A stretch of 64,000 nt of DNA from an uncultured Rhizobiaceae bacterium (GTDB lineage: Bacteria; Pseudomonadota; Alphaproteobacteria; Rhizobiales; Rhizobiaceae). Positions 36,744 to 46,470 of this stretch are shown here, one piece after another; positions within the stretch are counted from its first letter, which is position 1, and every line of letters starts with the position of its first letter. Position numbers and translations under genes: made by a program. The stretch is from the NCBI GenBank assembly GCA_964244725.1, contig CAXTJQ010000010.1, forward strand, positions 42,695-106,694, in the 5' to 3' direction. The notes beneath the pieces were generated by a model. It was not told the origin of the DNA. It did not search any database and saw only the letters and a program-made list of their open reading frames with translations.

Positions 36744-37830
36744 ATCGTTTTCCACGCCAGCCAATTGCGCCGCCTGCCGGCGGTCGATCCGCCAGGGATC
36801 GCAATCCTTCTACCTGGCCTCGCTGCTGCTTCCGGTGGCGATCCGCGAGCCGGCCTATGCCGTCTACGCCTTCTGCCGCATGGCCGACGATCTGATCGAC
36901 CGCGACGAGGGCGGTGCGCAGGCCATCCGCGACCTCGGTTTCATGCTCGACCGCGTTTACGCCGGAGAGCCGGACCGGAACTTCGTCGAGCGCGGCTTTG
37001 CCGACGTGGTCGAGCGCTTCGCCATCCCGCGCGCCGTCCCCGACGCGCTGATCGAGGGGCTGGCCTGGGACGCGGCGGGAAAACGATACCGATCTCTCGA
37101 CGACCTGAAGGCCTACGCGGTGCGCGTGGCCGGCACGGTCGGCTTCATGATGACGCTGGTGATGGGCCGTCGCGAGCCGCATGTCCTCGCCCGCGCCTGC
37201 GATCTCGGCGTGGCGATGCAACTCACCAACATCGCGCGCGACATCGGCGAGGACGCCAGGAACGGACGTCTCTACATCCCGCTCGACTGGCTGGCGGATG
37301 CCGGCCTCGACGCCGAAGCCTGGATCGCCGCGCCGGACTATTGCGACCATATCCGATCTTTCGTCGGTCGACTTCTGGCCGAAGCCGAAATCCTCTATAC
37401 GCGTTCGCAATCCGGCATTGCCGCGCTGCCCTCCGGCTGCAGGCTCGGGATCAATGCGGCCCGCCTTCTCTATCGCGGGATAGGCCAGGAGGTCCTGCGC
37501 GGCGTCGATCCGGTCTCGACGCGCGCGGTCACCTCCAAACGGCGGAAGCTGCGCCTGCTGGCGGAAGCGCTGACTTCCCGTCCGCCCGAAGGCTCCGACC
37601 TTCTGGCGCAAGGCGTCGCGCAGGCCGATTTCCTGATCGACGCGGTCGCCCGTTCGCCCGCGCCGCGCGCGCCGCCGCCGGTCCCCGCCTGGTGGGACCT
37701 CAGGGCGCGCTCGGAACGGATGATCGAATTGCTGAACGGTTTCGAAGCCCGCCGCGCTACGACAGAAACCGGATGCGGGTCCGTCCGCATCTTCGCGCAG
37801 TCGCAGTCGTTCTCCGGAACCGATCCATGA
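36721..37830 (+). CDS. crtB: Phytoene synthase
   Basis: GSQSFYLAS, YAFCRMADD, YAVRVAGTVG and MQLTNIARDIGED; start uncertain (overlaps the crtI end). Confidence 0.94.
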   Translation: MPPHSRPESFSTPANCAACRRSIRQGSQSFYLASLLLPVAIREPAYAVYAFCRMADDLIDRDEGGAQAIRDLGFMLDRVYAGEPDRNFVERGFADVVERFAIPRAVPDALIEGLAWDAAGKRYRSLDDLKAYAVRVAGTVGFMMTLVMGRREPHVLARACDLGVAMQLTNIARDIGEDARNGRLYIPLDWLADAGLDAEAWIAAPDYCDHIRSFVGRLLAEAEILYTRSQSGIAALPSGCRLGINAARLLYRGIGQEVLRGVDPVSTRAVTSKRRKLRLLAEALTSRPPEGSDLLAQGVAQADFLIDAVARSPAPRAPPPVPAWWDLRARSERMIELLNGFEARRATTETGCGSVRIFAQSQSFSGTDP

Positions 37831-37985
37831 GTTCGGGCCTCATCATTTTCTTCGAGATATCGCTGGTGCTCGGTTTCGCGCTGTTTTTCGGCGTGCGCGA
37901 GATTTTCAACCTGCGCCGCTACGACCGCGAGCGCGCCGCCAGGAACAAAGCGCAAGCCGAACAGGCCGAGAAGCAGGCGCTGTGA
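37827..37985 (+). CDS. 52-aa single-pass membrane peptide, function unknown
   Basis: ATGA overlap with the crtB stop; MSSGLIIFFEISLVLGFALFFGV followed by a charged tail. Confidence 0.65.
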   Translation: MSSGLIIFFEISLVLGFALFFGVREIFNLRRYDRERAARNKAQAEQAEKQAL

Positions 37986-38007: not shown

Positions 38008-38112
38008 CGCCCCCTCCACCACTTAGCGGCGGAGGATCAACGGCGCCGTTTGCGCAACCTAAATCCTCCCCCGTTTACGGGGGAGGGGGACCACGAAGTG
38101 GTGGAGGGGGCG
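38008..38112. repeat. Palindromic REP/MITE-like element (left arm internally deleted)
   Basis: Terminal inverted repeats CGCCCCCTCCACCAC...GTGGTGGAGGGGGCG and inner hairpin CTCCCCCGT-T-TACGGGGGAG; same family as 44861-44992. Confidence 0.85.
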
Positions 38113-42797: not shown

Positions 42798-43736
42798 ATG
42801 AAAACAAATGCGATCGTCCTCGAACGACCCGGCGAGCTCGCTCTTTGCCAGCTCGGTCTGAACGATCCGGCGTCTGACGATGTCGTCGTCGACATCGAAT
42901 GGAGCGGCATCTCCACGGGCACGGAAAAATTGCTCTGGTCGGGCCGTATGCCGTCCTTCCCCGGCATGGGATATCCTCTTGTGCCGGGCTACGAATCGAT
43001 CGGCCGCGTCGTCGAGGCGGGCCGCGACGCGGGTCGCCGCGACGGCGAACGCGTCTTTGTTCCCGGGGCTAATTGTTATCAGGGCGCGCGCGGGCTTTTC
43101 GGCGGCGCATCCTCCCGCGTCGTCGTCGCGGGCCGCAAGGCGACCCCGGTCGCCGAGAGCCTGGGAGATCGGGCGATCCTGCTGGCGCTTGCCGCCACCG
43201 CCTACCATGCGGTCGGCCCGGAAAGCCGGAAGCCGCCGCAATTGATTGTCGGCCATGGCGTGCTCGGCAGGCTGATCGCGCGGATCGCGGTCGCTCACGG
43301 CGCCGAGCCGACCGTCTGGGAAACCAATCCGGTTCGCCGCTCCGGCGCCGACGGCTATGCCGTCCTGCATCCCGACGAGGATCCGCGCCGCGACTACGCC
43401 GCCGTCTGCGATGTGAGCGGCGATTGCGACATCCTCGACGCGCTCGTGGCGCGCCTCGTGCGCGGCGGCGAAATCACGCTCGCCGGTTTCTACGACCAGC
43501 GCCTGTCCTTCGCCTTCCCGGCGGCGTTCATGCGCGAGGCGACATTCCGCATCGCCGCCGAATGGCGCGAGGGCGATCTCGCCGCAGTCGAACGCCTGGT
43601 CGAGCGCGGCAGCCTCTCGCTTGATGGCCTGATTACCCATTCCAGCGCCCCCGAAGCCTTCGAGAGCGCCTACGCCACCGCTTTCACCGATTCGAATTGC
43701 CTGAAGATGGTCCTCGACTGGAGGCAAGCCGCATGA
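42798..43736 (+). CDS. bchC: Bacteriochlorophyllide a (3-hydroxyethyl) dehydrogenase
   Basis: WSGISTGTEKLLWSGRMP.FPGMGYPLVPGYE, GHGVLGRL and CLKMVLDW. Confidence 0.97.
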   Translation: MKTNAIVLERPGELALCQLGLNDPASDDVVVDIEWSGISTGTEKLLWSGRMPSFPGMGYPLVPGYESIGRVVEAGRDAGRRDGERVFVPGANCYQGARGLFGGASSRVVVAGRKATPVAESLGDRAILLALAATAYHAVGPESRKPPQLIVGHGVLGRLIARIAVAHGAEPTVWETNPVRRSGADGYAVLHPDEDPRRDYAAVCDVSGDCDILDALVARLVRGGEITLAGFYDQRLSFAFPAAFMREATFRIAAEWREGDLAAVERLVERGSLSLDGLITHSSAPEAFESAYATAFTDSNCLKMVLDWRQAA

Positions 43737-44746
43737 ATGCACACATCAAAACCCCCGAAGGCGGGTTGATGGCGCTGGTCGAGAGCGTGCGCGCCGAAGC
43801 GGCGATGGCGCTCGATCCGGTGCATGTCGGCGAGGTCAAGAAGGAAACGCAGATCATCGCGATCTACGGCAAGGGCGGCATCGGCAAGTCGTTCACGCTG
43901 GCCAACCTCAGCCACATGATGGCGCAGCAGGGCAAGCGGGTGCTGCTGATCGGCTGCGACCCGAAAAGCGACACCACCTCGCTGCTGTTCGGCGGACGCG
44001 CCTGCCCGACCATCATCGAAACCTCGGCGCGCAAGAAGGCCGCCGGCGAAGAGGTCGAGATCGGCGACGTCTGCTTCAAGAAGGGCGGCGTCTTCGCCAT
44101 GGAGCTCGGCGGACCCGAGGTCGGCCGAGGCTGCGGCGGCCGCGGCATCATCCACGGGTTCGAGCTTCTGGAAAAGCTCGGCTTCCACGACTGGGGCTTC
44201 GACTATGTCCTGCTCGATTTCCTCGGCGATGTCGTCTGCGGCGGCTTCGGGCTGCCGATCGCCCGCGACATGTGCCAGAAGGTGATCGTCGTCGGCTCCA
44301 ACGATCTGCAGTCGCTCTACGTCGCCAACAATGTCTGCTCCGCGGTCGACTACTTCCGCAAGCTCGGCGGCAATGTCGGCGTCGCCGGCATGGTCATCAA
44401 CAAGGACGACGGCACCGGCGAGGCCGCGGCTTTCGCGGCCAAGGTCGGGATTCCGGTGTTGGCGGCGATCCCCGCCAACGACGACATCCGCAAGAAAAGC
44501 GCGAACTACCAGATCATCGGCGTCCCGGGCGGCGAGTGGGGTTCGCTGTTCGAGGAATTGGCGCAAAACGTCACCGATTCGGGACCGCAGCGGCCGACGC
44601 CTCTGACGCAGGACGAGTTGCTCGGCCTTTTTTCCGCCAGCCAGACAGGCGGCAACGTCGTTCTGGAGCCTGCAAGCCAGGCTGACATGCGCGGCGGGAT
44701 CGTCATCAGCAAGGCGTCGCTCGAAGTCGTGTACGACGCGGTGTGA
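43733..44746 (+). CDS. bchX: Chlorophyllide a reductase iron protein X
   Basis: [31 protein letters not shown] and [11 protein letters not shown]; start MNAHI at 43733. Confidence 0.97.
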   Translation: MNAHIKTPEGGLMALVESVRAEAAMALDPVHVGEVKKETQIIAIYGKGGIGKSFTLANLSHMMAQQGKRVLLIGCDPKSDTTSLLFGGRACPTIIETSARKKAAGEEVEIGDVCFKKGGVFAMELGGPEVGRGCGGRGIIHGFELLEKLGFHDWGFDYVLLDFLGDVVCGGFGLPIARDMCQKVIVVGSNDLQSLYVANNVCSAVDYFRKLGGNVGVAGMVINKDDGTGEAAAFAAKVGIPVLAAIPANDDIRKKSANYQIIGVPGGEWGSLFEELAQNVTDSGPQRPTPLTQDELLGLFSASQTGGNVVLEPASQADMRGGIVISKASLEVVYDAV

Positions 44747-46470
44747 CGATGAACCCGCGCGCAACCCGAACCGGCGTCGAGCCCACCGCTTCCACCAAGG
44801 CGGTCTACGATGCGGCGTGGGTCGCGCGAATCGACAATGCGGATTCGTCTTTGCCGCCGCCGCCCCCTCCACCGCCTTCGGCGGTTCCCCTCCCCCGTGA
44901 ACGGGGGAGGATCGAGGTCGAGGCTGTCCGCGACGCCGGATCCTCCCCTGCAAAGCGGGGGAGGGGGACCGCCGAAGGCGGTGGAGGGGGCGCGCCCGAT
45001 ATCGCAGCCTCCGGCTGTCACGGCGGCAAGGCCGAGTTCGTCCGCGCCGCGGAAGCCGCCGGCAACGGCGAACTGATGCAGAAGCTAAAGACCGACTATC
45101 CGCAGGGTCCGCACGACCAGCCGCAGTCCATGTGCCCGGCCTTCGGATCGCTCCGCGTCGGCCTGCGCATGCGCCGCACCGCGACGATTCTGTCCGGCTC
45201 GGCCTGTTGCGTCTACGGCCTGACCTTCACCTCGCATTTCTACGGCGCGAAACGCACCGTCGGCTACGTGCCGTTCAATTCCGAGACGCTGGTCACCGGC
45301 AAGCTCTACGAGGACATCCGCGATGCGGTCCACACGCTCGCCGATCCGGAACTCTACGATACCATCATTGTCACAAACCTCTGCGTGCCGACCGCGTCGG
45401 GCGTGCCGCTGCGCGCTCTGCCCAAGGAAATCAACGGCGTGCGCATCGTCGGCATCGACGTGCCTGGCTTCGGCGTGCCGACCCATGCCGAAGCCAAGGA
45501 CGTGCTCGCCGGCGCCATGCTCAACTACGCCCGGCTCGAAGCCGCCGCCGGGCCTGTCCCGCAGCCTAAATCCGGCAAATCCGGCCGGCCGACGATCACG
45601 CTGCTCGGCGAGATGTTCCCGGTCGATCCGGTCACCATCGGCCGCATGTTGGAGCCGCTGGGCCTCGCCGCCGGCCCTGTCGTGCCGACGCGCGAATGGC
45701 GCGAGCTCTATGGCGCGCTCGACTGCGCGGCCGTGGCCGCGATCCATCCTTTCTATACGGCCTCGGTCCGCGAGTTCCATGCCGCCGGCCGCGACGTGGT
45801 CGGCTCCGCGCCGGTCGGCGTCGAGGGCACGGCCGCCTGGCTGGATGCGATCGGCGAAGCCTGCGGCATCCCGGTCCGCACCGTCGACGCCGCCAAGGCG
45901 CCGATCCTGGCCGCGACCAAAGCCGCGCTCGAAGGCGCGCCGATCACGGCGCGCATCACGCTGTCGGGTTACGAAGGCTCCGAACTCATCGTCGGCCGCC
46001 TGCTCAAGGAATCCGGCGCCGATCTCCGCTATGTCGGCACCGCCTGCCCCAGGACGAAATGGAACGAGCCGGACGCCGACTGGCTGCGGGCGCATGGCGT
46101 GCATGTCGAGTTCCGCGCTTCGCTCGAGAAGGACATCGCCGCCGTCGAGAGTTTCGAGCCCGACCTCGCCATCGGCACGACGCCGGTCGTCCAGCACGCC
46201 AAGCAGAAGAGCATCCCATCGCTCTATTTCACCAATCTCATCTCGGCGCGTCCGCTGATGGGTCCGGCCGGCGCCGGTTCGCTCGCCCAGGTCATCAACG
46301 CCGCGGTCGGCAACAAGGGCCGCTTCGAGACGATGACCGCCTTCTTCGAGGGCGTCGGCAAGGATCACACCGCCGGCGTCTGGCATGATCCGCACCGGCT
46401 GCCCGAGAAGCCGAAGGCTCGCAAGCCGCTCGTCGCCGCCAAATCCTCCGTCACCATGCAGGATTTCTGA
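44743..46470 (+). CDS. bchY: Chlorophyllide a reductase subunit Y, with an N-terminal repeat-derived insertion
   Basis: [34 protein letters not shown] and [11 protein letters not shown]. Confidence 0.96.
44861..44992. repeat. 132-bp palindromic element (53/54-bp imperfect inverted arms) in frame within bchY
   Basis: Left arm 44861-44913 CGCCCCCTCCACCGCCTTCGGCGGTTCCCCTCCCCCGTGAACGGGGGAGGATC mirrors right arm 44939-44992; length is 44 codons; related to 38008-38112. Confidence 0.9.

Follow-up and report, generated by a model that had tools for sequence, protein, structure and literature searches.

Can a palindromic repeat form part of the reading frame for subunit Y of chlorophyllide a reductase (BchY), and if so, where does it come from and what does the enzyme make of it? 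This question is raised by a 64-kb window, i.e., the whole stretch of DNA that was analyzed here, from the draft genome (3.89 Mb, 29 contigs, 65% G+C, 95.6% complete) of a phototrophic bacterium of the Hyphomicrobiales. The ORF concerned was assigned to BchY by its match to TIGR02015 (695.4 bits, cut-off 425), and its neighbors encode BchX and BchZ (order bchX-bchY-bchZ). The palindrome begins 112 nt into bchY, shortly after bchX (Table 1), with the letters CGCCCCCTCCACCGCCTTCGGCGGTTCCCCTCCCCCG and ends with CGGGGGAGGGGGACCGCCGAAGGCGGTGGAGGGGGCG. An inverted-repeat finder reported outer arms of 37 nt (44861-44897 and 44956-44992), which are 97% complementary, and inner hairpins extend the pairing between them. 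Folding the RNA of positions 44850-45000 gave -135.4 kcal/mol, compared to -79.4 +/- 4.4 kcal/mol for dinucleotide shuffles (z = -12.76), and 0 of 200 shuffles equaled this value. Arms, fold, and ORF translation thus agree with the original prediction of a 132-bp near-perfect palindrome that is read in frame in bchY.

Table 1. Coordinates of the features discussed in the text. Positions refer to the 64-kb window unless a locus or contig is given.
Feature	Position	Strand	Remark
bchX	43697..44746	+	end 2 bases 5' of the bchY ATG
bchY	44749..46470	+	573 aa + stop; start set by homology
Conserved N-terminal segment (MNPR...) before the insert	44749..44860	+	frame shared with the core
bchY palindrome, inverted doublet of BoxC/triplex-motif-type half-units	44861..44992	+	codons 38-82, net +44 codons
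Left half-unit: tract CGCCCCCTCC, mini-hairpin ACCGCC-TTCG-GCGGT, hairpin CCTCCCCCG-TGAA-CGGGGGAGG	44861..44913	+	
Copy-specific spacer between the halves	44914..44938	+	found in the bchY copy alone
Right half-unit: pyrimidine tract, purine tract, mini-hairpin, mirror purine tract	44939..44992	+	
Codons G89-C90-H91-G92-G93 (GCHGG)	45013..45027	+	first ordered model helix (93-116) comes next
Sister copy, left half truncated	38008..38112		between convergent genes
Repeat-bracketed DUF559 region	L155:1470-1912 = own genome C21:19090-19532		

As the TIGR02015 match only starts at residue 118 of the 575-aa ORF, the start of bchY had to be derived from homology. The aligned N-termini of the 40 closest homologues share the pattern MNxR..(E)VVYDAA..(R)IDNP, which is followed by a gap-rich, unalignable stretch of ~15-30 residues, the motif GCHGG, and near-identity from there onward. 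The MNPR that begins at the ATG at 44749 fits the MNxR of the homologues, and this codon, rather than the GTG at 44743, is most likely the start. Residues C90, H91, and G93 are invariant in an alignment of 63 BchY sequences, and also the rest of the BchY studied here retains every residue that is invariant across these homologues. With conserved coding sequence on either side, the palindrome fills the variable stretch of BchY. Since the conserved stretches before and after the insert share a single frame, a start at ATG 44749 and a protein with 44 extra residues are to be expected. It had been claimed that the frame contains no ATG, GTG, or TTG from the first base of the element up to the GCHGG codons, and inspection of the sequence and of the ORF translation confirmed this, with the next in-frame Met being located at 45076. 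The further claim that full-length BchY must carry the insert is supported at the level of the sequence by the same-frame conserved motifs on both sides, from which translation of the insert would follow. Exact-protein look-ups of the 573-aa and the 575-aa product yielded no record.

The region into which the palindrome is placed is variable throughout the BchY family. Among 119 of the best 120 BchY homologues, in which the motif was recognizable, the distance from the start to CH(G/A)(G/S) has a median of 40 and a maximum of 83, while the corresponding Cys is residue 90 here. The palindrome is missing from all 119 of these proteins, including one from a genome of the same genus (G008, locus L002), of which the linker is short (IDNPERPAIAEADEAPALVSKLSSGDGCHGG). 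In a second genome of the genus (G007, L003) bchY is also devoid of the palindrome, but frameshifted. This gene, from an assembly that is 87% complete, exhibits frameshifts near the N-terminus and two TGA codons within the match (L003:1440-1860), and it might be a pseudogene or reflect assembly errors. As the cores of the nearest BchY proteins are only ~88-91% identical, they provide no base-perfect empty site for bchY. A metagenome scan for a near-identical relative with an empty site, using a back-translated 12-residue pattern, gave 0 matches, and a scan for the terminus of the element followed by GCHGG gave 33 matches, none of them in bchY. The comparison with close relatives which had been proposed as a check yielded short, element-free linkers, but not the vacant site of an almost identical bchY. 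The N-terminal tail of BchY appears to change or recombine far faster than the core of the enzyme, and two homologues (P0014 and P0039) have almost no such tail. In an AlphaFold2 model built with the 63-sequence alignment, residues 1-92 exhibit pLDDT values <50 and almost no secondary structure, so that the insert (residues 38-82) falls in a predicted disordered tail. The first long helix of the model (93-116) comes right after GCHGG, and the C-terminal two thirds are predicted with confidence. A search of the PDB revealed no chlorophyllide a reductase structure, and the match to BchN/ChlN of DPOR was weak.

A related palindrome was found in frame in the same linker of the BchY of another genome (P0022; L101:3107-3225, on a 5.0-Mb contig of JGI 3300058929). 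It comprises 119 bp with 47-nt arms that are 96% complementary, and it differs in sequence from the element in the window while being related to it in architecture. The 90%-identity cluster of P0022 contains four other proteins, of which P0135 carries the palindrome and P0134, P0136, and P0137 (542-546 aa) do not. These three are near-identical to P0022 from GCHGG onward and have a short linker, and hence represent empty-site alleles for this second case. The first ~55 residues of BchY were also seen to differ strongly between P0022 and P0134/P0137, despite the near-identity that begins at GCHGG. Two independent palindromes in one BchY linker are consistent with a permissive site, and likewise with selection.

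The element in bchY belongs to a mosaic repeat family with ~33 loci in its own genome, where a locus was counted if it contained >= 2 family modules. The terminal 12-mer GCCCCCTCCACC occurs in 56 exact copies genome-wide, counting both strands, and in the window it occurs four times vs. 0.59 expected. A half-unit consists of the terminal tract GCCCCCTCC, a mini-hairpin ACC-NNN-TTCG-NNN-GGT with compensatory variants (GCC/GGC, ACGC/GCGT, ATGC/GCAT, A/T), and a hairpin CCTCCCCCG-loop-CGGGGGAGG. Of the 33 loci, 20 are inverted doublets, 105-135 bp in length, whose spacers vary, and the remainder are single halves or tandem arrays. The latter have short fixed spacers (e.g., GTCCACTTTA) and were observed at C1:374083-374337, C7:40634-40910, and C21:32058-32240 of the own genome, with inverted doublets alongside. 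The bchY copy has the layout CGCCCCCTCCACCGCCTTCGGCGGTTCCCCTCCCCCGTGAACGGGGGAGGATC-spacer-GATCCTCCCCTGCAAAGCGGGGGAGGGGGACCGCCGAAGGCGGTGGAGGGGGCG, and its right half-unit reads CCTCCCCTG-CAAAG-CGGGGGAGGGGG-ACCGCCGAAGGCGGT-GGAGGGGGCG. Its best match elsewhere in the genome is 88.6% identical over the whole element. Of the two features that mark a MITE, terminal inverted repeats are present in the bchY element, and the flanks of 20 aligned copies exhibit no consistent direct repeat that would represent a target-site duplication. Among the 20 full copies, the one in bchY is the best paired and forms the strongest hairpin (-131 kcal/mol), which could point to a young insertion or to a hairpin that has been kept for some reason.

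Outside of this genome, the family is present in seven of ten searched genomes of the same genus and in two sister genera, while searches of more distant relatives did not recover it. An Rfam scan of the element yielded only sub-threshold matches to miRNA hairpins and no fitting family, and nothing relevant to the terminal 12-mer turned up in the literature. In a collection of plasmids, only half-units matched (H1-H5, ~50 nt, 81-85% identical), on plasmids of Sphingomonas and Sphingobium, which indicates that related modules also occur outside the Hyphomicrobiales. The intergenic sister copy that had been reported within the window was recovered and sits between two convergent genes. Next to it, downstream of crtB, a small ORF (37830-37985) encodes a hydrophobic and then charged peptide (MSSGLIIFFEISLVLGFALFFGVREIFNLRRYDRERAARNKAQAEQAEKQAL) and stops 22 bases before the repeat. 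Taken with the short, palindrome-free linkers of the relatives, the ~33 loci support the earlier idea that a selfish repeat has made new protein sequence in bchY.

When the 20 full copies of the own genome were read in all six frames, 62% of the readings were stop-free, and 10 of the 20 have a length divisible by 3, so that ~3 in 10 insertions would leave a gene open. A search for further in-frame copies in the own genome, as the original prediction had suggested, revealed no other convincing one, neither by a test of codon-position GC nor by reading the translations. In the GC test, no other copy exhibited coding-like flanks on both sides in one frame; the bchY locus itself misses the left-flank criterion of this test, because the 180-nt window of the test extends into bchX. 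Four copies in long ORFs lie, according to the translations, upstream of the true starts (esterase, CbbX, ABC ATPase, and iron alcohol dehydrogenase). The translations of the remaining long ORFs over copies were read by eye and rejected as antisense-like or out-of-frame junk, and several long ORFs that span elements in the relatives (L140 and L143 among them) were discarded due to shadow-frame GC patterns. That the bchY copy is the sole convincing internal coding copy in its genome fits with a strong purging of genic insertions. Two further in-frame cases of the same family were found in other genomes. In G010, a member of the same genus, a copy is located in an RND transporter of the AcrB type, within the central cytoplasmic loop (L144:3339-3461 = G010:C1:3063338-3063460), where it cuts the ACR_tran profile in two; the frame in which this copy is read differs from the one used in bchY. 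In a metagenome (JGI 3300058848), a 257-bp composite (L135:2242-2498) with 66-nt arms of 95% complementarity is in frame in an Lhr-like helicase (P0123), where it separates the DEAD domain (33-209) from the Helicase_C domain (394-496).

Repeats which are translated in frame at tolerant sites are well documented (PMC3184786, PMC5896051). These sources describe, with reference to Ogata et al. (2000, 2002), the Rickettsia palindromic elements (RPEs), which are located in frame in genes (PMC3184786, PMC5896051). The rarity of such cases outside Rickettsia was overstated in the original prediction, as in-frame REP/MITE insertions (Delihas 2007/2011) have been reviewed as widespread, and translated repeats are also exemplified by the QMITEs of Coxiella (QMITE2), by repeats of pneumococci, and by small mobile sequences of enterobacteria (PMC3184786, PMC5896051). 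Like RPEs and in-frame REP/MITE insertions, the element studied here is a repeated palindrome of ~105-146 bp that lies in frame in a functional gene and extends the protein where this is tolerated, with orthologues that lack it. It falls into an RPE-like class in that a member of the family interrupts a gene whose homologous coding sequence precedes and follows it in a single frame, and in that the orthologues are without it. Nevertheless, the sequence family is probably unrelated to RPEs, and the host is a free-living phototroph of the Hyphomicrobiales with 65% G+C. Moreover, RPEs are often genic, whereas only one of the ~33 loci in the own genome lies inside a gene.

With regard to architecture, the element resembles the BoxC/PIT/TM repeats, a class with intrastrand triplex motifs that occurs in E. 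coli as well as in numerous further bacteria (Holder et al., 2015, PMC4666352). Each half-unit contains a pyrimidine tract, a purine tract, and a mirror purine tract, CCTCCCC.G...CGGGGGAGGGGG...GGAGGGGGC, a putative triplex layout that was read from the purine-rich strand and compared with Table 1 of PMC4666352. Between the purine tract CGGGGGAGGGGG and the third tract read backward (CGGGGGAGGTGG), 11 of 12 positions agree, and the E. coli BoxC tracts used for comparison are CCCTCGCCCC...GGGGAGAGGG TTA GGGTGAGGGG (PMC4666352). The tracts of the second BchY palindrome (L101) are almost identical to those of E. coli BoxC (GGGGAGAGGG...GGGTGAGGGGG). Further similarities to BoxC are the G/C-rich, multi-copy nature, conserved stems with variable loops, and the frequency of inverted pairs (here 20 of 33 loci are full doublets). 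In contrast to BoxC, the second loop is a mini-hairpin of 15-19 nt with compensatory variants, and while all 23 copies of E. coli BoxC are intergenic (PMC4666352), the bchY copy lies within a coding frame. REPINs are similar in that they are inverted doublets of short repeats which form one long hairpin and occur in tens of mostly intergenic copies, together with singlets and tandem arrays. Unlike the REPIN/RAYT system, the own genome has no Y1_Tnp gene and contains a repeat-bracketed gene for a DUF559 nuclease instead.

As for the enzyme that might move the repeat, a search of the own genome (95.6% complete) with PF01797 (Y1_Tnp) for a RAYT gave no match. The relatives G004 and G009 are repeat-rich without Y1_Tnp, and G010 contains nine near-identical full-length PF01797 matches, a set that looks like an IS. 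A RAYT was thus rejected as mover, as there is none in the own genome and Y1_Tnp in the relatives does not track the repeat. Of five DUF559 genes in the own genome, one (C21:19121-19483) lies inside the densest repeat cluster, with a right terminus of the repeat at ~20 bp on its upstream side and a left terminus at ~40 bp on its downstream side. The same bracketing is seen for the orthologues in G008 (80% identical) and G010 (74%), and the one in G004 (58%) has hairpin modules upstream. Paralogues of 45-52% identity in G002, G006, and G009 are unbracketed, and G002 and G006 are without the repeat family. This makes the DUF559 nuclease a candidate mobilizing enzyme, a link that is only suggestive as several repeat-rich genomes are without a close orthologue of it.

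Taking these observations together, the palindrome is most probably a non-autonomous hairpin repeat that inserted into a disordered linker of BchY, left the frame open, and adds 44 residues as a near-neutral passenger. Other readings have to be weighed against this one. The hairpin might have been co-opted as RNA, acting as a decay barrier, as a site for RNase III/E, or as a translational pause, and thereby uncouple bchCX from bchYZ-puf. The intercistronic hairpins of the Rhodobacter puf operon are an analogue of such segmental expression control, and the very stable fold (the strongest among the full copies), the location just past bchX, and the independent palindrome at the equivalent point of a second bchY would all be in line with it. 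Yet the frame that contains the element is a translated one, and passing ribosomes would open the hairpin, the compared homologues are without such a structure save for the one with the related palindrome, and even the close sister alleles of this second case do without it. Also intrinsic termination was rejected, as 0 terminator-like sites were predicted in 44500-45300 and the hairpin is followed by GCGCCCGATATC rather than by a U-tract. A function of the hairpin as RNA, including the effect on the BchX:YZ ratio or on mRNA decay which the original prediction had suggested, found no support and is regarded as unlikely. Quite improbable, too, is a linker that serves as a selected landing pad, in which triplex-motif palindromes were fixed independently in two lineages 112 nt into bchY and in which the RNA or DNA structure tunes bchCXYZ-puf via segmental mRNA stability or by making translation pause ahead of the Fe-S-binding core, or a linker that is a target hotspot of a DUF559-type nuclease.

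Repeats are a classic source of misassembly, and with a draft genome of 29 contigs (95.6% complete) and the frameshifted bchY of G007 in mind, an assembly artefact or a decaying bchY pseudogene has to be considered. The element, however, is located in the middle of a 158-kb contig with bchY on both sides in one frame, its unique spacer and an identity of <= 88.6% to any other copy mean that it cannot have been borrowed from another locus, and the remainder of BchY keeps all residues invariant in 63 homologues, so that this explanation appears very unlikely. It is hardly conceivable, either, that BchY starts past the element, at Met 45076 or at a non-canonical start, with the upstream frame being open by chance. 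Such a start would agree with the TIGR02015 match beginning at residue 118, with the nearly missing N-terminal extension of P0014 and P0039, and with the 62% of element frames that are open by chance, but it would leave the invariant GCHGG upstream of Met 45076. Furthermore, there is no start codon from the element to GCHGG, and the segment before the element still encodes the lineage-typical MNxR..VYDAA..IDN in the same frame. A role of the inserted peptide at the protein level, e.g., as a charged proline-rich tether for a partner, would fit with the frame of the bchY element recurring in other called proteins. Two of the three database matches, though, probably have over-extended N-termini, judging by their sequences, the insert is predicted to be disordered and is absent in all relatives compared, and the RND pump uses another frame of the element, which makes such a role seem highly improbable.

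According to the favored passenger explanation, a non-autonomous hairpin-forming repeat built of inverted BoxC/"triplex-motif"-type half-units would have inserted into the N-terminal linker of BchY, which is hypervariable and predicted to be disordered, and as the repeat has a length divisible by three and a stop-free frame, bchY stays open. BchY would then be made with an additional 44 residues, many of them Pro, Gly, and Arg, between the IDN motif and the invariant GCHGG. The insert would be a tolerated, near-neutral passenger, with genic insertions elsewhere presumably being purged and the linker being among the few permissive places.

New in this case are the host gene bchY, a BoxC-type element in frame, and the recurrence in the same BchY linker of a second lineage. 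It would represent a clean case of a selfish hairpin repeat that adds a peptide to an important enzyme without destroying it, in a free-living phototroph. Repeats of the BoxC/triplex-motif type, which are strictly intergenic in the reports on E. coli, can accordingly persist in frame. The stretch of BchY before GCHGG may be regarded as a natural permissive site, with a possible use in tagging chlorophyllide a reductase, and the repeat-bracketed DUF559 nuclease offers a testable candidate for the mover of a repeat class that has long been an orphan.
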